Assembly: GCF_036917755.1 (NCBI RefSeq)
Contig: NZ_JBALFC010000090.1
Location: 46,205 to 70,204, forward strand
DNA from: Nostoc sp.
GTDB lineage: Bacteria; Cyanobacteriota; Cyanobacteriia; Cyanobacteriales; Nostocaceae
DNA length: 24,000 nt
Direction of reading: 5' to 3'
In this document: piece by piece, positions 2,703 to 22,341 of the stretch
Position numbering within the stretch: the first letter of the stretch is position 1
Layout of the letters: the number at the start of each line of letters is the position of its first letter
Position numbers and translations under genes: made by a program
Notes under the pieces: generated by a model
What the model was told of the DNA's origin: nothing
The model's database searches: none
The model's input: the letters and a program-made list of their open reading frames with translations, nothing else

Positions 2703-5069
2703 TCATCCCAATGCCGACATTCGCGCCGAGAAGAACGCCCAAGTGGTGACAATTCCTCCCAAAAGGTAATGAGCGACCCCCACAGCCCGACCATGAGTGA
2801 TGCTCAAAGCGCGAGGCTGAATAGCAGGGGCAATTTTCAACTTGTTGTGCGCCCAAACAATTGATTCGATTAATTCTTGCCAGTAGCCACGACCACTAAA
2901 CAGGAACATCAGACTAAAGCCAAAAACGAAGTGTCCCGCTAAGAACATTAAGCCGTAGCCCGAAAGTGCTGAATTGTAGGATGTGATTACTTGCGTCGCC
3001 TGCGCCCAGAGGAAATCACGCAACCAGCCGTTATTGGTAATCGATGATTGGGCAAAGTTTCCGCCCGTAATGTGCGTCACTACCCCATCTGCATCTACCG
3101 TCCCCCAGACATCCGACTGCATCTTCCAGAAGAAGTGGAAAATCACCATTGACAAGGAGTTATACATCCAGAACAGACCCAGGAAAACATGATCCCAAGC
3201 TGATACCTGGCAAGTACCGCCTCGTCCCGGGCCGTCACAGGGGAAGCGGAAGCCCAAATTAGCTTTATCTGGAACTAAACGCGAACTGCGGGCAAACAAC
3301 ACACCCTTCAGCAGTACTAAAACAGTGACGTGAATTGTGAAGGCGTGAATGTGGTGAATCATAAAATCCGCAGTACCCAAACTAATGGGCATCATCGCCA
3401 CTTTGCCAGCCACTGCCACAATACCGCCGCCCCATGCATAGCTGACAGGTTCGTGCAAATTAGGTGCAGCAGTTCCCAATCCGCCCAGTTCCAGACCCCG
3501 CAAGCCACCGAAAGCATTACCCAGAGGTGCAGCAGCTTGGAGAGCTGGATTTCCGATGGTCATCGTCTGGATGTGTTGTATCCACTGAGCAAACACTGGC
3601 TGCAACTGAATTCCCGTATCCGAGAACATATCTTGGGGACGACCAAAAGCCCGCATGGTGTCGTTGTGACAGTACATCGCAAAGCTATGGAAGCCCAGGA
3701 ATTGACATACCCAAGCTAGGTGGGAGATGATTGCATCGCGGTGGCGGATCGTCCGATCCAACACGTTGTTGACATGGTCGGCTGGATTGTAGTCCCGTAC
3801 CATGAAGATGCCTGCGTGAGCCGCGCCCCCAACAATGCAGAAACCTGCAATCCATACGTGGTGGGTGAATAGCGATGTAACGGTCGCATAATCCGTTGCC
3901 AGATAAGGATAAGGGGGCATCGCGTACATGTGGTGCGCCACAAGGAGGCTGGCTGTCCCAAACTGTACTAGGTGGATAGATAGATTAGCGTGCCAGGAAG
4001 TCTCGAAAATTTTATCGAGGCCTTTATGACCGACAGGCCCAATAAAGCTGAATAATGGCAGCATCTTCGGAGTTCTGGCATCATCGAGCAGTTCCTTGAA
4101 GTCGTGGCCGATGCCCCAATTCGTGCGGTAGAAATGGCCGGCAATGATGAATAGCACTGCGATCGCTAAATGATGGTGTGCTATATCTGTTAACCATAAG
4201 CCGCCCGTCACGGGGTTCAGACCGCCCTTAAAGGTCAGGAAGTCAGCAAAATTTCCCCACTGCAAGGTGAAGAAAGGCACTACACCCGAAACGAAACCCC
4301 AACTTGCACTGGGATAGAGCTGATCCATCAACTTGGAATTCAAGATGAATTCGTGGGGTAAAGGAATGTCTCCTAGAGCTACCCCAGCATCTAACAACTT
4401 GTTAGTTGGTGAGGCAACATGAATCAGGTGTCCTGTCCAACCCAAAGAACCCAAGCCTAAAAGCCCTGCCAGGTGGTGGTTCATCATTGACTCCCAATTC
4501 AGGAACCACTCTAGCTTGGGAGCGCGTTTATGGTAGTGGAACCAGCCAGCAAACAGCATCACTGCTGCCATCACCAAGGCACCAATGGCGGTGCAATATA
4601 GCTGGTAGGTATTAGTAAAACCTTGCCCACGCCACATCTGGAAGAGTCCAGAGGTAATTTGAATACCGTGGAAGCCGCCGCCCACATCTGCATTCAAAAT
4701 TTCTTGACCAAATATCGGCCAGACAACTTGGGCGCTGGGTTTAATGGCAGTCGGGTTCGCCATCCAAGATTCAAAATTGGAAAAGCGAGCGCCATGAAAA
4801 TACATACCGCTCAACCAGATAAAGACTACAGCTAAGTGTCCGAAGTGAGCGGCGAAGATTTTGCGCGATACGTCTTGTAAATCGCTGGTATGAGTATCAA
4901 AATCGTGGGCGAGTGCGTGGAGGTTCCAAATCCAAGTGGTGGTTTTGGGACCTCTGACAAGGGTGCGGTCAAAGTGTCCTGGTTCCGACCACTTCTTAAA
5001 TGAAGTTGCCACCGGATCGTTATCAACCTCAACCCTTACCTTTTGCTCTCGCTCAGGAGTAATTGTCAT
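2703..5069 (-). CDS. psaA2: Photosystem I P700 apoprotein A1, far-red paralog (788 aa)
   Basis: The N-terminus is [16 protein letters not shown]...[12 protein letters not shown] and the FX motif is [26 protein letters not shown] Shine-Dalgarno sits about 8 nt upstream of the ATG at 5069. It is longer than the roughly 750-aa housekeeping PsaA. Confidence 0.95.
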
Positions 5070-5505: not shown

Positions 5506-5646
5506 ACATATATAGTAGTCTGCTTTGATTTTTGTTCGCGCAGCGTGGCGTAGCCATAATTATTTGCGTAGGCGGGGAGTGGGGAAGAAGCCTTTTCGGG
5601 GTGTACTGATTTTTTTCAAAAATTAAATACGAGTCCTACTATATGT
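5506..5646. mobile_element. MITE-like insertion of about 141 bp with imperfect terminal inverted repeats
   Basis: The left end ACATATATAGTAGTC (5506..5520) matches the reverse complement of the right end GTCCTACTATATGT (5633..5646), with one AT indel. There is no coding capacity. It lies between the extra CheY gene and the psaA2 control region. Confidence 0.4.
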
Positions 5647-5662: not shown

Positions 5663-6049
5663 TTATCGGTTCCAGCCCAGCACTGCTGAAACTTGGCTAG
5701 CTAGAGTCATTAAATCAAAAGGTTTAGCGATCGCAATTCTCACCCCCAATTTACCAAATTGCTCTAGTTCTTGAGATGATAATGTAGTCGTTAACAAAAT
5801 TACAGGTATATCTTGGGTTACGGAGTTATTCTGTAGTTGGTGCAAAATTGTAGATAAGTCTCTATCGGAGACAAAAGTATCCAGATCCACAAGGATAACA
5901 TCAACTTTTTGCGTCTTTGTTTTAGCGATCGCTTCTTGGCTCGATACCGCCGTCAGTACCTCCCAGCCTTCTACTGTCTCCAAGCAAAGCTGAGTTACTT
6001 CCCGAATAGCATTTTTATTCTCAATCAGTAAGATGCGTCGGGTTTTCAC
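5663..6049 (-). CDS. Single-domain CheY-like receiver, divergent paralog of RfpC with a degenerate acidic pocket (128 aa)
   Basis: GTG start with GGAAGG about 11 nt upstream. It aligns over its whole length with the adjacent RfpC (shared RIL.I, IRE.TQ.CLE, W.V.TA, DVIL.D, LQ.N..TQ.IPVILLT, KP.D..TL..QV). It keeps the acceptor Asp (ILVDLD), the Thr (LLTTT) and the Lys (AIAKPF). The acidic pair is E-N (LLIENKN) instead of D-D, and MPDMDG is replaced by DTFVSDRD. Confidence 0.8.
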   Translation of the reverse strand: MKTRRILLIENKNAIREVTQLCLETVEGWEVLTAVSSQEAIAKTKTQKVDVILVDLDTFVSDRDLSTILHQLQNNSVTQDIPVILLTTTLSSQELEQFGKLGVRIAIAKPFDLMTLASQVSAVLGWNR

Positions 6050-6958: not shown

Positions 6959-6990
6959 CTTCCGACTTCCGACTTCCGATTTCCGACTTC
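6959..6990. repeat. STRR heptamer array CTTCCGA x4.5
   Basis: Tandem units run from 6959 and end 1 nt from the rfpA stop codon (6994..6992). Confidence 0.85.
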
Positions 6991-6991
6991 T

Positions 6992-9775
6992 TTAATGATT
7001 AATAGGTAATGTGAAATAAAATGTACTACCTTCCCCTAAAATACTTTCTGCCCAAATCTGCCCTCCGTGCTGTTGTATAATGCTGCGACAGATTGCTAAT
7101 CCCAAGCCAGTTCCCCCTTGATGACGCGAGTTAGAGGCATCGACTTGCTGAAAACGGTCAAAAATCTTTTCTAATTTATCCTCAGGAATTCCTCGCCCCT
7201 GGTCTTTTAGCTGGAATAGGATGTTGGAGTGGCAAGGGTCAGAGGAAGAACTAATCCCTTTTGTGACTTCTGTATTTATTTCTTTCCTAGTCTCTACTTG
7301 GGCGCTCAACCAAACTGTAAAACCTGGAGATGAAAATTTAATCGCGTTGCTGAGTAAGTTCGTGAGTGTCTGGATGATCCGGTCTGAATCTGCCCATAGC
7401 TGCACTGAAAGGGGCGTTAATTCTAGCTTAATCTCTGCTCTTTCGGCCATTGCCCGCATTTCGTCCACTGCTTGACTCATCAAGTCAGCTGCATTGCAGG
7501 TCTGTTTATACATCGTTGCTTTGCCGGAATTGATGCGTTCAATATCAAGGATGTCGTTAATCAGACGCACCAAACGGTTCGTGTTATCAAAGGCAATTTC
7601 CAGCATCCTCTGGCTTTTTTTTGGTTGATCATTTAAGGAACCACGCGCTAGTAAACCTAAAGCGCTGCGAATTGAGGTGAGAGGTGTCCGTAGTTCGTGA
7701 CTTACCACTGAGACAAACTCATCCTTCATTCGCTCGACTATCTGTCGCTCGGTAATATCTTTAAATATGACTACTGCTCCGACAATATCGCCTTGTTCTC
7801 TAATAGGTGTGCTTACATACTCGACTGGAAATTTCGACCCATCACAACGATAAAATATGTCATCAGAAATATGTTGTACTGCCCCAGTTTCCAGAGTGGC
7901 GCGAATCGGATTTTCTTCCCAGCAATAGGGAGCGCCGTCGGGCTGGGAATGTTTTACAATTCCGTGCATAAAGTGATTTTTTAGTTCTTTCACCCCAGAT
8001 AAAAGCATTCTGGCTGCTGCTGGATTGACAAAGGTGATGTTACCTTGGGAATTTAAACCGTAAATTCCCTCACCTGCGGAGTTCAAAATTAACTCGCTCT
8101 GTCGGCTGAGGCGTTCTAGAGAGGCTTGTGTTTGCTGGCGATCGCGTAGTGCCTGTTCGCGTTCGCTCATTTCCCGCAGCAATCTTTCATTAGCACGCTG
8201 TAACTCCGCCGTTCGCTCCTGTACTCGCTCCTCTAGTTCGGCATTCAAGGCAGAGATTTTTTTCTCTGCCTGCTTGCGTTCTTCAATATCTCTCTGTAAG
8301 TCAGCATTGAGTACGTGAACTTTCTGATACAGTTCATATTGATGAATTGCCATCGCAAAGTGACTGCCCAAAGCTTGGGCGAGTTCAATTTCTGCGGTTT
8401 TCCATTCTTGGGCTTGACTCCGCTTTAACTCTCGCCATGCTTCAAAGGATTGAACCGGGCGTTGATGTCGCGCATTATTGCGGTCAGGTCGTCGCGCCCA
8501 CAGAGTTTCTGTGTCTATTTCATGGCGAAAAATACTCAAGTAACCCAATATCTGCTGCCGATATTGCAAGCAAATAACCAATAAGCTGCGAATCCCAGCA
8601 TCAAAAAACGCCTGTGCCAAGTCTGACTGTAGTGCAGCCCGATGTAAATCAGTAATTGCCCACACTAGTTTTCCCTTCCCAACAGTCGCCTCCATGTTTA
8701 ACCACTCTTGCCAACCGGGATGTTCCTCGAAGAGGATGGGGGCATTGGGAATTGGGCATTGGGCATTGGGAATTGGGCATTGGGCATTGGGCATTGGGCA
8801 TGGGGCATTGGGCATTGGGCATGGGGCATTGGGCATTGGGCATGGGGCATTGGGCATTGTTATTCTTTGCTCCTCATCTCCCTCATCTCCCTCATCTCCC
8901 CCTGCTCCCCTCCTCCCCCATTCCCTCACTCCCCCACTCCCCCACTCCCCCACTCCCCCACCCCCTCGCTGCCCCATTCCCCAATCCCCACAGCTAAACA
9001 CCTGAGCCGCCTCACCTGGGTTTTGGGGAGCAATATAAATTCTGCCGCCAGCAGACTGTAAAGCAGATACAGTCAACTCCAGCGCTTGTTGTAACTGCAT
9101 TTCGGTCATGGAATGCAGTAGCTTGGCCACGCGGTTAATTGTGGCTTCTTGGTCAGCTTGGGCGCGGGTTTGTTCGAGGAGGGTATTTTGAGCGATCGCA
9201 ATTGATAATTGATCTGCAACCAGTTGCACTACCTGTAATTCCCGCTCGCTCACCTGTCGGGGTGAACTGTGATGAGATACCAACAACCCCCATAATTGGT
9301 TACGATGCAAAATTGGCACAACTAGAGAAGACTGCACTCCCATTGAGGTGAGGTATTCTACATGACATGGGTCTACGAGTCGAAACCGCATATTATTTTC
9401 ATCAAGTGGCTCGGTCGTTTCTAGACTATCTAAGGGACTCAGCCCAATTTGCTGGGCTGCAACATCCACAATTGAGCGCTGACGAGCTTTCAGAAACAAC
9501 TTCCGAGCTTCAAGTGGAATATCCTCAGCCGGAAAGTGTTGTCCTAATAGAGATGGTAAGCGATCGCAGTTAACCGACTCAGCCACAACCTCACCGCTAG
9601 CATCTGGATCAAAACGATACACTTTAACGCGGTCAGTCCCCAAGAATGTACGTACTTCAGCAACCGTTCCTGAGAGGATTGCTGGCAACTCTAGGGATTG
9701 ACGAATGCGGTTCATCATCCGATGTAACAGCGCTTCCAAGGAGTCGATCGGCTTTTGTTTTTTGTCTTTTGTCAT
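6992..9775 (-). CDS. rfpA: Knotless phytochrome sensor histidine kinase (927 aa)
   Basis: The N-terminal GAF domain has the bilin Cys-His (VDPCHVEYL, Cys137) with no PAS domain ahead of it. A second GAF/PHY-like domain carries the tongue-like motif [12 protein letters not shown] coiled coil and a PAS domain ([12 protein letters not shown]) follow. The kinase has the H-box [10 protein letters not shown] and the HATPase boxes [15 protein letters not shown] and [14 protein letters not shown] lies about 10 nt upstream of the ATG at 9775. Confidence 0.9.
8740..8962. repeat. Composite short tandem repeat block inside the rfpA coding sequence
   Basis: On the plus strand there are 17 tandem heptamers GGGCATT/GGGAATT/GGGCATG (8740..8858), then a CCTCATCTC 9-mer x3 (8872..8898), then an ACTCCCCC 8-mer x4 (about 8929..8960). 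On the rfpA strand this is translated as ...[73 protein letters not shown].... Confidence 0.95.
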
Positions 9776-9830
9776 TTGTCAGTTGTCCTCAGATAGCGGC
9801 AAACCGAGAAAGTCACGTCGCTTTGCTCCG

Positions 9831-15394: not shown

Positions 15395-15880
15395 ATGCAA
15401 GATGCAATTACTGCTTTGATTAATACCTCTGACGTTCAAGGCAAATACTTAGATAATAGTTCTTTAGACAAGCTGCAAAGTTATTTCCAGAGTGGTGAAG
15501 TCCGTGCTCGTGCAGCCACCACAGTTAGTGCCAATGCTAAAAATATTGTCACTAAAGCAGTTGCTAAATCTCTACTTTACACGGATATTACTGGCCCTGG
15601 TGGGAATATGTATACTTGCCGTCGTTATGCAGCTTGTATCCGGGATTTAGATTATTTTCTGCGCTACGCCACCTATGCCATGTTAGCTGGTGATCCATCA
15701 ATTCTTGATGAGCGGATTCTAAATGGCTTGAGAGAAACTTACAACTCTTTGGGCGTTCCTGTTGGTGCAACTATCCGCTCGGTGCAAGCCCTGAAAGAAG
15801 TATCCACAAGCATCGTAGGTGCTGATGCGGGTAAAGAACTGGGTGTCTATTTCGACTACATTGCTTCTGGCTTGAGCTAA
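15395..15880 (+). CDS. apcB2: Allophycocyanin beta-type subunit, far-red paralog (161 aa)
   Basis: It starts [20 protein letters not shown], has [25 protein letters not shown], and ends [10 protein letters not shown]. An AGGAGA Shine-Dalgarno is upstream. Confidence 0.85.
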
Positions 15881-15886
15881 ATAATT

Positions 15887-16060
15887 GGGGAGTGGGGAGT
15901 AGGGAGTAGGGAGTAGGGAGTAGGGAGTAGGGAATTAAGAGTTAGGAGTTAGGAATTGAAAGTCAATCCATCTCCCTCATCCTCCTCATCCCCCTCATCC
16001 CCCTCATCCTCCTCATCCTCCTCATTCCCCCATTCCCCACTCCCCACTCCCCACTCCCCA
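15887..16060. repeat. Inverted STRR arrays filling the apcB2-apcD2 spacer
   Basis: The left array has 11 heptamer-phased units, GGGGAGT x2, AGGGAGT x4, then AGGGAAT/TAAGAGT/TAGGAGT/TAGGAAT/TGAAAGT (15887..15963). The right side has CCYCCTCAT 9-mers x6 (15972..16025), then TCCCCAC x4 (16033..16060). The TCCCCAC units are the reverse complement of the left-array unit. Confidence 0.9.
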
Positions 16061-16065
16061 CTCCT

Positions 16066-16545
16066 ATGAGCATTATTACAAAATCAATTGCTAGCGCTGA
16101 TCGGGAAGCTCGCTATCTCAATCCTGGTGAGTTAAACGCTATTCGCAACTTTTATGAAGGTGGATTTTCTCGGCTGCGTATTGCTGTAACTCTGACAGAA
16201 AATGAAGAAAAAATTGTCGAAAAGGCAAGTCTCAAGTTTTGGGAACGATGTCATGATACTCCCAGTAATAGTGGGAATAGAATTTATCGGTCTTCCTGTT
16301 TGCGTGACCAAGGTTGGTATATTCGTCTGATTACATATTCTATACTGCTGCAAGATATCGAGCCGCTCGCAGAAATTGGCACTATTGGGGTTCAGGAAAT
16401 GTATAACTCTTTAGAAATTCCACTCCCCAATCTAGTGATAGCAATTCGTTGTCTGAAAGAAGTTTCTTTAGACCTTTTTAATTTAGAAGATGCTGCGGAG
16501 TTAGCACCTTACTTTGACTACTTAATTCAGGAGTTGACACCTTAA
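16066..16545 (+). CDS. apcD2: Allophycocyanin alpha-type subunit, far-red paralog (159 aa)
   Basis: It starts MSIITKSIASADREARYLNPGEL, carries FWERCHDTPSNSGN and SCLRDQGWYIRL, and ends YFDYLIQELTP. The D2 name comes from gene order. Confidence 0.65.
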   Translation: MSIITKSIASADREARYLNPGELNAIRNFYEGGFSRLRIAVTLTENEEKIVEKASLKFWERCHDTPSNSGNRIYRSSCLRDQGWYIRLITYSILLQDIEPLAEIGTIGVQEMYNSLEIPLPNLVIAIRCLKEVSLDLFNLEDAAELAPYFDYLIQELTP

Positions 16546-18975: not shown

Positions 18976-19060
18976 GGGGATGAGGGGGATGAAGAAAGTG
19001 TTTTCCCAATGCCCAATGCCCAAATCCAAAATCCAAAATCTAAAATCTAAAATCCAAAAT
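18976..19060. repeat. Composite STRR block: GGGGATGA x2, spacer, CCCAATG x2, AAATCCA/AAATCTA x5.5
   Basis: Tandem units are read directly. The block fills the whole apcE2-apcD3 spacer. Confidence 0.85.
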
Positions 19061-20834: not shown

Positions 20835-22235
20835 ATGGAAACCTCTTTAGGTCGTTCTTCAACTAAACCGAAAATCAGTGCCCCAGCAGCAGAAGGTCGT
20901 GACCAAGCATCTACCGGATATGCTTGGTGGGCTGGTAATGCCCGTTTTATTAACTTGTCTGGTAAGTTTTTAGGCGCACACGTCGCCCATGCAGGCATAG
21001 TGGCTTTTTGGGCGGGAGCAATGTTGTTGTTTGAAGTCTCTCACTATGTCCCAGACAAGCCGATGTATGACCAGGGCTTAATTTTGATGCCGCACATCGC
21101 GACATTGGGTATTGGTGTGGGACAGGGGGGAGTAATTACAAGTGTCTTCCCATTTTTTGCGATCGCTGTGACGCATTTGATTGGCTCTGCCGTTTTAGGT
21201 ATTGGTGGTCTATATCATGCACTCAGAGGCCCCGAAAAGCTAGCTGGCTTTTTTGATTTCGATTGGAGTGATAAGGACAAAGTTACTAGTATCCTGGGCT
21301 ATCACCTAATCGCCTTGGGTGTGGCAGCGTTCTTACTTGTCGGCAAAGCCACGCTTTGGGGCGGCATATACGACACTTGGGCACCGGGCGGCGGTGATGT
21401 GCGCCTTGTTACCCAGCCCACGCTCGACCCCCGCATCATCTTTGGTTATCTGTTAAAAGGAATTACAGGTGGTGCAGGTAATATTGCTGGCGTTAATAAC
21501 CTAGAGGATTTGGTCGGCGGTCATATTTGGATGGGTAGCCTTCTAATTTTGGGTGGTATTTGGCATATTATCACCAAGCCCTTTAAATGGACTCACGGTA
21601 TTTTTACCTGGTCGGGTGAAGCTTACCTTTCACAAAGCTTAGGTAACGTTGCTGGGCAAGCTTTAATTGCATCCATGTTTATTTGGTTTAATAACACTGC
21701 CTATCCCAGTGAATTCTACGGCCCTTCAGGCCCAGAAGCATCGCAAGCCCAAGCCTTGACCTTCTTAGTGCGTGACCAAAAATTGGGGGCGAACGTCGCT
21801 TCGGCTCAAGGCCCCACAGGCTTAGGTAAATATTTAATGCGATCGCCTACAGGAGAAATCATCTTCGGTGGTGAAACAATGCGCTTCTGGGATACTAGGG
21901 CGCCTTGGCTAGAACCATTGCGCGGTGTCAACGGACTAGACATCGATAAGATTCAGCATGACATTCAACCCTGGCAAATTCGCCGCGCAGCAGAGTACAT
22001 GACTCATGCACCTTTAGGTTCTCTGAACTCAGTAGGTGGTGTATCGACCGAAATAAATGCTTTTAACTTCGTATCACCACGTACCTGGCTAGCTTCTGCA
22101 CACTTTATCTTTGCTTTCCTGTTCTTAGTTGGTCATCTTTGGCACGCTGGACGCGCCCGCGCCGCCGCCGCCGGTTTTGAAAGAGGTTTGGAGCGTGAAG
22201 ACGAGCCAGTTAGGTCTATGAATCCACTGGATTAG
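20835..22235 (+). CDS. psbC2: Photosystem II CP43, far-red paralog (466 aa)
   Basis: It contains [54 protein letters not shown] (the Mn-cluster Glu and Arg region) and [16 protein letters not shown]. The leader AAAGGACAAAT (20820..20830) precedes the ATG. Confidence 0.93.
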
Positions 22236-22257
22236 GTATTTGGGACTGGGGAGCAGA

Positions 22258-22341
22258 GGGAGATGAGGGAGATGAGAGAGACAAGGAGAATACCCAATGC
22301 CCAATGCCCAATGCCCAATACCCAATGCCCCATGCCCAAAT
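22258..22341. repeat. Composite STRR block: GGGAGATGA x2, spacer, CCCAATG-type x7
   Basis: GGGAGATGAGGGAGATGAGAGAGACAAGGAGAATA is followed by CCCAATG x3, CCCAATA, CCCAATG, CCCCATG and CCCAAAT (22293..22341). It has the same architecture as the reverse complement of the block inside rfpA. Confidence 0.9.

Follow-up and report, generated by a model that had tools for sequence, protein, structure and literature searches.

The window, the whole 24-kb stretch of Nostoc DNA analysed here, encodes on its minus strand an intact 927-aa protein that was characterised through its translated open reading frame, Pfam matches, neighbours and orthologs. The Pfam matches (GAF, residues 30-194; PHY, 404-478; PAS, 561-678; HisKA, 683-751; HATPase_c, 796-925) outline the GAF-PHY-PAS-histidine kinase layout of a knotless phytochrome without an N-terminal PAS domain, the domain order that defines RfpA (Zhao et al. 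2015, PMC4658448). The exact protein is present in NCBI as WP_335166376.1. Around the gene are psaA/B, psbA/D/C, apc and response-regulator genes, which together form a cluster for far-red light photoacclimation (FaRLiP). Classified by domain, its neighbours comprise PsaA/PsaB paralogs, two CheY-like receivers, a receiver with a winged-helix regulator, Photo_RC and allophycocyanin paralogs, an ApcE-like linker, psbD and psbC; rfpB/rfpC and paralogous psa, psb and apc genes, which characterise a FaRLiP cluster, thus lie beside it. Full-length identity to the RfpA proteins of Calothrix sp. PCC 7507 (84%), Fischerella thermalis (73-80%) and Chroococcidiopsis thermalis (65%) indicates orthology with RfpA from strains in which FaRLiP has been experimentally shown, and the aligned orthologs keep the GAF-domain Cys-His pair C137-H138 without exception. 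On these sequence-based grounds of domain order, FaRLiP neighbours and 65-84% identical orthologs, the gene is rfpA, in agreement with the sequence-only reading, which had named it as the FaRLiP photoreceptor.

Within this gene lies a block of short tandem repeats that is translated in frame, the bounds of which were set from sequence and coordinates and the internal parts by parsing of the coding strand:

6992..9775, minus strand: rfpA open reading frame, intact, 927 aa
8738..8980, minus strand: repeat-built in-frame insert, residues 266-346 (81 aa, 243 nt)
8740..8858, minus strand: C-rich arm of 17 heptamers (AATGCCC x12, CATGCCC x3, AATTCCC x2)
8859..8871, minus strand: non-repetitive 13-nt spacer AGCAAAGAATAAC separating the two arms
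8872..8989, minus strand: G-rich arm with GGGGGAGT x4, degenerate GGGGAG units and GGGAGATGA x3
8872-8900, minus strand: the GGGAGATGA x3 repeats, a 29-nt perfect tract encoding GDEGDEGDE
8927-8961, minus strand: the GGGGGAGT x4 repeats, a 35-nt perfect tract

An in-frame tandem-repeat block of about 245 nt (8738-8985) had previously been proposed; the block is real, and its bounds were refined to 243 nt (8738-8980). Parsing returned the unit counts given before (17 heptamers, three 9-mers and four 8-mers, the heptamers being of AATGCCC type), all in frame. The description of the segment as wholly repeat-encoded holds for most of it, tandem repeats accounting for about 93% of the insert and not for 100%. 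The insert contains five Cys residues instead of the six reported, and the C-rich arm encodes MPNAPCP-type heptapeptides of which five are full and one partial, instead of six. Tandem Repeats Finder recovered positions 8740-8859 at period 7 (17.1 copies, 91% matches, score 205) and 8878-8982 at period 8 (12.8 copies, score 99). With scores of at most 47 in 30 dinucleotide-preserving shuffles of the window, the score of 205 identifies the head-to-tail 7-nt units expected of short tandemly repeated repetitive (STRR) sequences. The longest perfect tract in the C-rich arm spans 30 nt at period 7 (4.3 units) and 78 nt at period 21, and variant heptamers sit at unit positions 3, 6, 9 and 13, 16. The heptamer array contains no stop codon in any frame, and the identical heptapeptide is encoded in all three frames. 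Spacer AGCAAAGAATAAC is conserved in the rfpA loops of the Nostoc clade and resembles the junction of an intergenic copy downstream of psbC2.

Other readings of the block as a genetic element were discarded. Three plus-strand open reading frames (8656-8997, 8694-9005 and 8708-9061) were rejected as genes, since the repeats are stop-free in all six frames and this accounts for frames opposite the block. Likewise, an intron, an intein or a known RNA element was rejected: the block is fully translated in frame and Rfam returned nothing in or near rfpA, its only match in the window being IsrR, inside psbC2.

An AlphaFold2 model of RfpA places the insert between a strand (residues 258-263) and a helix (353-361) of the PHY domain, with pLDDT below 50 for residues 269-343 and around 90 in the flanking blocks from residue 351 on. 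The model fold matches the knotless GAF-PHY structures 8W26 and 4BWI, and RfpA residues 248-356 (about 108) correspond to residues 251-275 (about 24) of 8W26, the SyB-Cph1 GAF-PHY crystal structure. It is on the model and the match to 8W26, not on Pfam, that assignment of the insert to PHY is based. The Pfam PHY model covers only the C-terminal half of the domain, in short-loop orthologs too, and the partial match was hence rejected as a sign of a domain split by the insert. The insert is therefore predicted to form a disordered surface loop of the PHY domain with well-folded flanks, in line with the earlier suggestion of an insertion into a PHY surface loop. Residues 264-348 represent an obvious deletion target for RfpA expression, crystallography and cryo-EM, and orthologs with loops of 0-8 codons exist.

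The comparative survey of this site encompassed 86 loci, with loop lengths of 0-249 nt (0-83 codons), a median of 51 nt and the longest loop in the window; among 120 homologs, the segment aligned to RfpA residues 235-375 ranged from 58 to 163 aa. The expectation that the segment would be absent from orthologs was not borne out, given that insert length at the site varies throughout the orthologs and that close Nostoc relatives carry homologous arrays. Nor did orthologs present a conserved, non-repetitive segment of similar length, the outcome that the sequence-only reading had set against its own proposal; they vary over the range given above. The close Nostoc relatives L002, L003, L006, L007 and L012 have the spacer and arm layout in common and differ in unit numbers, the L002 protein being 96% identical to RfpA of the window. 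Loop sequence, length and Cys residues are unconserved even between proteins that are 94-96% identical. Additional elements were identified inside these arrays. A 24-nt element, also found on Nostoc plasmids, occurs in two copies in the L002 array, at AAT^GCCC, and a palindromic element of about 41 nt, which matches a Chroococcidiopsis plasmid perfectly over 36 nt, is present in the L007 and L012 loops. Both of these unrelated elements are translated within the loop.

The same unit families recur at many, mostly intergenic, sites within the window, as expected of STRR sequences. The repeat finder, complemented by alignment for the composite copy, detected the following:

22242..22339, plus strand: intergenic copy of the composite, just downstream of psbC2, in opposite orientation to the rfpA copy
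22289-22339 and 19005-19023: AATGCCC/CCCAATG arrays
15888-16064: GGGAGTA/CCCCACT arrays
2610-2631, 15975-16025 and 22256-22281: GATGAGG-type 9-mers

Of the 39 rows that the repeat finder gave for the window, 23 have period 7, and arrays occupy 21% of its non-coding bases versus 1.6% of its coding bases, the latter falling to 0.37% without the rfpA insert. The composite downstream of psbC2 consists of GGGGAGCAG, followed by GGGAGATGA repeats, GAGACAAGGAGAATA and AATGCCC x7, and aligns colinearly with rfpA loops; its 15-mer GAGACAAGGAGAATA is common only to the L003 rfpA loop. Its unit number differs between near-identical strains, with a 42-nt indel between the window and L163 and no single-base differences across 4.4 kb. 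Further copies of the composite were searched for on plasmids and no match was returned, for which low-complexity masking is a possible cause. That psbC2 has a homologous composite downstream of it points to copying or conversion of composites between sites, a poorly understood process.

Taken together, the data indicate that the rfpA block is probably a tolerated STRR-type repeat insert, located in an unconstrained disordered loop and kept in frame by selection. The insert would be a composite of short tandem repeats native to this genome, in which a short spacer separates a G-rich arm from a C-rich heptamer arm, all within the codons of a loop that, among RfpA relatives, tolerates every length between 0 and 83 codons. 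Within the Nostoc clade this loop is made of repeat arrays, with unit types and numbers differing from species to species, and small elements known elsewhere in cyanobacteria have landed in it. Array length probably changes through replication slippage or unequal recombination, and purifying selection on RfpA would remove out-of-frame or stop-containing variants, so that only in-frame versions persist. Being stop-free in every frame and encoding the same heptapeptide in all three, the heptamer array would be well suited to such a loop, and the repeat has probably persisted in RfpA because it landed in a loop without length constraint. Variant-unit spacing and the 78-nt perfect period-21 tract suggest that the present array grew in 21-nt (three-unit) steps; the 21-nt superstructure was also found in intergenic arrays and is therefore no proof of selection for frame. 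The Gly/Glu-rich and Pro-rich peptide is probably a passenger with no specific function, and the loop would then be dispensable. A tolerated low-complexity loop had been the fallback of the sequence-only reading, and the evidence agrees with it.

The interpretation put first in that reading was a potential on/off switch, or a hot spot for loss of the FaRLiP response, through slipped-strand mispairing of the 7-nt unit; it was weighed here as a switch in which slippage of the 7- and 8-nt arrays would turn off rfpA and, with it, the whole far-red response. The units are not multiples of 3 and lie inside an open reading frame, such that changes in unit number shift the frame, one of the features of a contingency locus. 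In agreement with what had been proposed, simulated gain or loss of one or two heptamers yielded RfpA products of 356-377 aa, truncated before most of the PHY, PAS and kinase domains, whereas changes of three heptamers preserved the frame (920 or 934 aa); a change of one 8-mer yielded 285-291 aa. Comparable intergenic heptamer arrays differ by 1, 2 and 6 units between near-identical assemblies, including differences of +14 and -7 nt in two arrays between the window and L001, and heptamer repeats are reported to drive phase variation in Haemophilus influenzae HMW1A (PMC8262952). Nonetheless, the loop is in frame in 85 of the 86 loci, and natural alleles alternating between in-frame and out-of-frame states were not found among them. 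The sole frameshifted allele, in the relative L080, also carries an N-terminal truncation and a large internal deletion, and in this multiply broken pseudogene other lesions may have preceded the one in the loop. The window and L001, which differ by single bases elsewhere, have identical array DNA, and the 927-aa protein occurs on three contigs, even though shorter intergenic arrays differ. This identity also counts to some extent against a pure passenger model, under which three-unit in-frame changes should be neutral; none were seen, in a very small sample. The perfect period-7 tract of only 4.3 units compares with a 78-nt tract in the in-frame period of 21, and the array is situated in mid-gene, away from the 5' end. 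With residues 1-265 as the query, many short products were returned, and among those of the Nostoc clade only the L080 fragment P0126 ended in the loop; the remainder were contig ends or distant proteins that may be paralogs, P0134 and P0164 among them. Population variants in metagenomes were sought through an exact search with the downstream flank, which returned nothing, and through a protein-based scan, which returned no near-identical Nostoc locus except L109, a contig ending in the array. Each cell of a filamentous cyanobacterium also contains many copies of the genome, and a recessive off state would be blunted by them. Furthermore, phase variation was judged unlikely for such repeats in Nostoc sp. 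PCC 7120 (Rehm et al. 2015, PMC4692102). These comparisons yielded no positive evidence for a slippage-driven switch of rfpA, which is very unlikely, and it is just as unlikely that the array is a true contingency locus, generating heritable, reversible FaRLiP-off variants in Nostoc populations such as those of lichen thalli. If it were, far-red acclimation would be a bet-hedged trait, L080-type pseudogenes would mark the end point of a locked-off lineage, and rfpA would be the first such locus known to govern a programme of photosynthetic acclimation, a possibility that the data obtained here speak against.

A tolerated insert must also be weighed against a functional one, in which a Gly/acidic and Pro/Cys-rich loop would be selected as a flexible spacer, an interaction surface or a redox-sensitive element tuning RfpA signalling. 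Most orthologs do have a loop, whatever its length, the large loops of many lineages have a Gly/charged-rich half followed by a Pro-rich half, which could reflect protein-level selection, and five Cys residues lie within the photosensory module. This possibility is nevertheless very unlikely: the loop measures 0 nt in four surveyed loci and at most 27 nt in about a quarter, neither its sequence, its length nor its Cys residues are conserved, unrelated 24-nt and ~41-nt elements are translated within it, and the G-arm/C-arm layout of the DNA, which intergenic copies have too, accounts for its polarity. The nucleic acid itself could instead be the functional entity, with G-quadruplexes or a two-arm RNA hairpin modulating rfpA transcription or translation. 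G-quadruplex motifs (at least four tracts of three or more G, with loops of 1-7 nt) were found at 8738-8854 on the plus (template) strand, where the C-rich arm reads (GGGCATT)n, and at 8880-8989 on the minus strand, where the motif falls in the G-rich arm, on the coding strand as well as in the mRNA; related Nostoc GGGGAYT units fold as G-quadruplexes in vitro (PMC4692102). A specific RNA hairpin in the rfpA insert was rejected, as its fold is no better than that of shuffled sequences (z = +0.46). By contrast, the apc-spacer composite (z = -5.1) and the orthologous loop of L008, which forms a long hairpin (z = -4.6), fold well. Given that arm sequences are unconserved between relatives, that in most orthologs the loop is either missing or free of repeats and that Rehm et al. 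found no regulatory role (PMC4692102), such a regulator is highly improbable. Lastly, array length or frame might have been produced by short-read assembly. All sequences compared come from assemblies, for the most part metagenomic, and arrays of this kind are difficult for short-read assemblers; three assemblies (L010/L050, L109 and the 277-nt contig of P0122) have contigs that stop at the rfpA array, a point of relevance for annotation and assembly, and the intergenic differences in array length could themselves be assembly errors. A split of rfpA into two open reading frames in Fischerella thermalis PCC 7521 has been ascribed to sequencing or assembly errors (2015, PMC4390838). An artefact is nonetheless extremely improbable here: the window and L001 give the same 243-nt block, the exact protein is found on three contigs, the frame is intact and inserts at the same site are present in relatives that were assembled separately, the complete genome of Calothrix PCC 7507 among them.

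The tolerated repeat insert can be compared with several known systems. STRR sequences, heptamers of heterocystous cyanobacteria, were reportedly described by Mazel and colleagues in 1990. As with these, tandem 7-nt units occur at many sites in Nostoc DNA, and the relative L006 carries the classical CCCCAGT unit in its rfpA loop. Unlike STRR sequences, described mainly as intergenic, the rfpA copy lies midway along a sensor kinase and is translated in frame, and it is a composite of 7-, 8- and 9-nt units instead of a single unit type. STRRs have been used for fingerprinting (Rasmussen & Svenning 1998, as cited in PMC5088731). G-rich heptamer arrays are abundant in Nostoc sp. [quoted passage not shown] 2015, PMC4692102). 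The rfpA arrays resemble them as G-rich heptamers with the same G-tract spacing but differ in their units (GGGCATT and GGGGGAGT), for which G-quadruplexes are predicted from the motif; neither RfpA nor in-frame translation of an array is described in that study. With the phase-variable loci of host-adapted pathogens, rfpA shares a repeat in an open reading frame whose unit is not a multiple of 3, such that a one-unit slip shifts the frame. It differs from them in that on/off polymorphism was not observed, that the repeat is interrupted and located mid-gene in a cytoplasmic sensor, and that the frame is kept at the longest perfect register of the repeat (21 nt). In-frame insertion into protein-coding genes is reported for Rickettsia palindromic elements (Ogata and colleagues, 2000), and very small mobile repeats have reportedly been found in cyanobacteria (Elhai and colleagues, 2008). 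As in both cases, a selfish or neutral repeat would be tolerated and translated at surface positions of an open reading frame, and small elements known elsewhere lie inside the heptamer arrays of L002, L007 and L012; the rfpA insert differs in being mostly a tandem array and not a discrete transposed unit. The insert probably belongs to an already known kind, the STRR-type repeats of heterocystous cyanobacteria, and provides a clear natural case of usually intergenic repeat DNA carried and translated inside an essential sensor.

The block of short tandem repeats lies in frame within the PHY domain of rfpA, which encodes the far-red-light sensor kinase and master photoreceptor of the far-red light photoacclimation (FaRLiP) cluster. 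The sequence-only reading had proposed both the block and its location, and both were upheld by a repeat finder, the intact ORF and a structure model. The rfpA ORF (6992-9775, minus strand, 927 aa) is unbroken with the block inside it, and its product presents the Pfam order GAF, PHY, PAS, HisKA and HATPase_c; a GAF-PHY-PAS-kinase layout is defining for RfpA (PMC4658448). Full-length homologs were identified in Calothrix PCC 7507 (84% identity), Fischerella thermalis and Chroococcidiopsis thermalis, and the exact 927-aa protein, present on three contigs, is NCBI WP_335166376.1, from Nostoc sp. metagenome-assembled genomes. The neighboring genes encode PsaA/PsaB paralogs, two CheY-like receivers, a receiver with a winged-helix regulator, two Photo_RC paralogs, allophycocyanin paralogs, an ApcE-like linker, psbD and psbC, and this neighborhood is the FaRLiP cluster. 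The second CheY-like receiver gene (5663-6049, minus strand), downstream of rfpC, may be rfpD, an optional gene (bioRxiv 10.1101/2024.05.15.594131). A 131-nt segment (5514-5644), possibly a small mobile element, is present in the window and absent from the near-identical assembly L001.

Tandem Repeats Finder reported 39 rows in the window, 23 of them at period 7, against a mean of 3 rows and a top score never above 47 in 30 dinucleotide-preserving shuffles. Two rows map to the block, at 8740-8859 (period 7, 17.1 copies, 91% matches, score 205) and 8878-8982 (period 8, 12.8 copies, score 99). On the minus strand, the block resolves into a composite of two arms and a spacer:

8872-8989, minus strand: G-rich arm, four copies of GGGGGAGT (35-nt perfect tract), degenerate GGGGAG units and three copies of GGGAGATGA
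8859-8871, minus strand: spacer AGCAAAGAATAAC, 13 nt, non-repetitive
8740-8858, minus strand: C-rich arm, 17 heptamers (AATGCCC x12, CATGCCC x3, AATTCCC x2)

The earlier description stands apart from details: the insert (residues 266-346) comprises 81 aa with five Cys residues rather than six, and about 93% of it, not its entirety, is tandem repeat. Because the variant heptamers fall at positions 3, 6 and 9 (CATGCCC) and 13 and 16 (AATTCCC), the longest perfect tract of the array is 78 nt at period 21 versus 30 nt at period 7. This pattern suggests that the array grew in frame-preserving steps of three units. Period-21 structure is also present in intergenic arrays, and the three-unit pattern in rfpA is therefore no proof of selection. 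The rfpA start codon and first ~8 codons (MTKDKKQK) fall inside a separate array of (TGACAAA/GACAAAA)n heptamers (9752-9787, minus strand).

An AlphaFold2 model of RfpA residues 1-520 (alignment of 91 sequences, mean pLDDT 79) predicts a GAF domain joined by a long connecting helix (177-220) to a GAF-like PHY domain. A helix (228-238) and two strands (243-248 and 258-263) precede the insert, residues 269-343 are predicted to be unstructured (pLDDT <50), and a helix (353-361), further strands, a tongue-like segment and an exit helix (460-519) follow. Foldseek matched the model to the SyB-Cph1 GAF-PHY crystal structure 8W26 (E = 9e-31) and to Cph2 (4BWI). In the sequence alignment, RfpA 12-248 and 356-503 correspond to 8W26 13-251 and 275-421, so that ~108 RfpA residues stand for ~24 of 8W26. 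Pfam recognizes no more than the C-terminal half of the PHY domain, here and in short-loop orthologs alike, and its match is thus uninformative on the insert. The loop Cys residues are not conserved in the homolog alignment. C137-H138, the conserved GAF-domain Cys-His pair, shows no variation among aligned orthologs.

Alignment with RfpA relatives overturned the expectation that the segment would be absent elsewhere, revealing a loop of variable length. Query residues 235-375 correspond to anything from 58 to 163 residues in 120 aligned homologs, with conserved sequence on either side. In the 86 genomic and metagenomic loci for which tblastn placed both flanks, the DNA between Gly263 and Ile347 spans 0-249 nt (median 51), the loop of the window being the longest. 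On the evidence of these alignments, the PHY loop is the sole place in RfpA with free length. More than half of the loop is tandem repeat in the Nostoc clade, in Fischerella muscicola (L054) and in the Nostocaceae bin L008 (69% protein identity), which carries AATGCCC and AATCCCC heptamers; a few Leptolyngbyaceae loops contain heptamers as well. Close Nostoc relatives have the spacer and the two-arm layout in common, with different unit types and numbers:

L002 (96% identical protein), loop of 210 nt: C-rich arm of ~7 heptamers, broken twice at AAT^GCCC by the 24-nt element ACTTCGACTTCGCTCAGTACAAGT
L002:3911-3934 and 3949-3972: copies of the 24-nt element, within the rfpA heptamer array
L003 (94% identical protein), loop of 141 nt: C-rich arm of ~9 degenerate heptamers
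L006 (Nostoc clade), loop of 147 nt: C-rich arm of AATGCCC, AATCCCC and the classical STRR unit CCCCAGT
L007 and L012 (Nostoc clade), loops of 162 and 186 nt: ~41-nt palindromic element inside the array
L007:2383-2423 and L012:2407-2447: the ~41-nt palindromic element, within the rfpA heptamer array

Both elements are translated in frame in these loops. Neither is confined to rfpA: plasmids carrying the 24-nt element are known from Nostoc punctiforme, Nostoc PCC 7120, N. flagelliforme and Nostoc UHCC 0926, and 36 nt of the ~41-nt element are matched perfectly on a plasmid of Chroococcidiopsis.

The same repeats extend beyond the gene. Tandem arrays occupy most intergenic spacers of the FaRLiP cluster in the window, covering 21% of non-coding versus 1.6% of coding bases (0.37% without the rfpA insert), and each of the insert's three unit families is found again outside rfpA. 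The spacer just downstream of psbC2 (22242-22339, plus strand) aligns colinearly with rfpA loops, in the order GGGGAGCAG, GGGAGATGA repeats, junction and AATGCCC repeats. Among the window and 165 loci, the junction 15-mer GAGACAAGGAGAATA occurs in two places only: this spacer (window, L163 and L164) and the rfpA loop of L003. This unique sharing indicates that the two composites are homologous, presumably through either copying or gene conversion. The rfpA composite (8740-8989, minus strand) and the psbC2-downstream composite lie ~13 kb apart in opposite orientation, and recombination between them would invert the intervening segment and split rfpA. On the strand opposite psbC2 (21264-21450, minus strand), Rfam places a full-length match to IsrR, the antisense RNA of isiA (129 bits, threshold 52). 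Sequence similarity between isiA and psbC is the probable cause, not a real antisense RNA.

Assembly comparisons indicate that arrays of the type found in the rfpA insert are labile. Alongside ~20 single-base changes in roughly 9 kb, the window differs from L001 by +14 nt (two units) in an ACTTCCG array adjoining the rfpA stop codon (6977-6990) and by -7 nt (one unit) in a TCCCTAC array adjoining the rfpC stop codon (6388). No single-base differences separate the window from L163 in 4.4 kb, yet the two are 42 nt (exactly six heptamers) apart in the psbC2-downstream array (22292), a gap that reflects either very rapid turnover of the array or a collapse of repeats by the assembler. At this site, L162 has eight 9-mers and three heptamers.

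Such lability lends some plausibility to the proposal that slippage of 7- or 8-nt units switches rfpA on and off. The frameshift arithmetic behind it is correct: gain or loss of one or two heptamers leaves a product of 356-377 aa and of three heptamers one of 920 or 934 aa, and a simulated change of one 8-mer yields 285-291 aa. The proposal nonetheless has a low probability. No positive sign of on/off alleles was seen, the window and L001 share the 17-unit array unchanged amid these varying ones (the near-identical comparisons being few and all from assemblies), and 85 of the 86 loci are in frame through the loop. The exception, Nostoc sp. P12649 bin 6 (L080), has a +1 shift inside the repeat loop; its rfpA (L080:1573-3215) has also lost the N-terminus, where it runs into a truncated rfpB-like ORF, and the PAS region, the latter through a large internal deletion. 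The missing N-terminus and the deletion, besides the shift, mark it as a decayed pseudogene, and one Nostoc lineage thus appears to have lost its FaRLiP regulation. When residues 1-265 served as the query of a protein search, L080 remained the only Nostoc-clade case of a product that stops within the loop. These data fit purifying selection for an intact RfpA frame. A similar view, with phase variation judged unlikely, has been taken of Nostoc G-rich heptamers generally (Rehm et al., PMC4692102). An assembly artefact is likewise unlikely: short-read contigs do end exactly at the rfpA array in three other assemblies (L010/L050 at ~residues 269-331, L109 at residue 273, and the contig of P0122 with a start of APILFEEHP), but the window and L001, which differ elsewhere, give the same block.

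An RNA hairpin in the window insert was rejected, its fold being no better than shuffled sequence (z = +0.46). The orthologous loop of L008 (L008:2268-2500), where a (GGGCATN)n 5' arm is complementary to an (AATGCCC)n 3' arm, is predicted to form a long hairpin (z = -4.6) with an additional small hairpin element inside. A long imperfect hairpin (-82.5 kcal/mol, z = -5.1 versus shuffles) is also predicted for the stretch separating two apc genes (15880-16066, plus strand), which is made up of (GGGAGTA)n, a spacer, (CCTCATCCT)n and (CCCCACT)n; it may serve the apc operon in mRNA processing, mRNA stability or termination. G-quadruplex sequence motifs are predicted for both arms of the rfpA block: those of the G-rich arm lie on the coding strand, those of the heptamers on the template strand.

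The rfpA block is best explained as a tolerated composite repeat of the STRR type (short tandemly repeated repetitive heptamers of heterocystous cyanobacteria) in an unconstrained, disordered PHY loop. The array would lengthen and shorten by slippage and acquire small elements present elsewhere in cyanobacteria, and selection on RfpA would hold it in frame. This has practical use for RfpA structural work and genome assembly, and the switch proposal, though of low probability, is testable. No mention of this loop was found in the RfpA literature examined; the phenomenon belongs with known kinds, namely STRRs, intragenic G-rich heptamers and in-frame repeat inserts.
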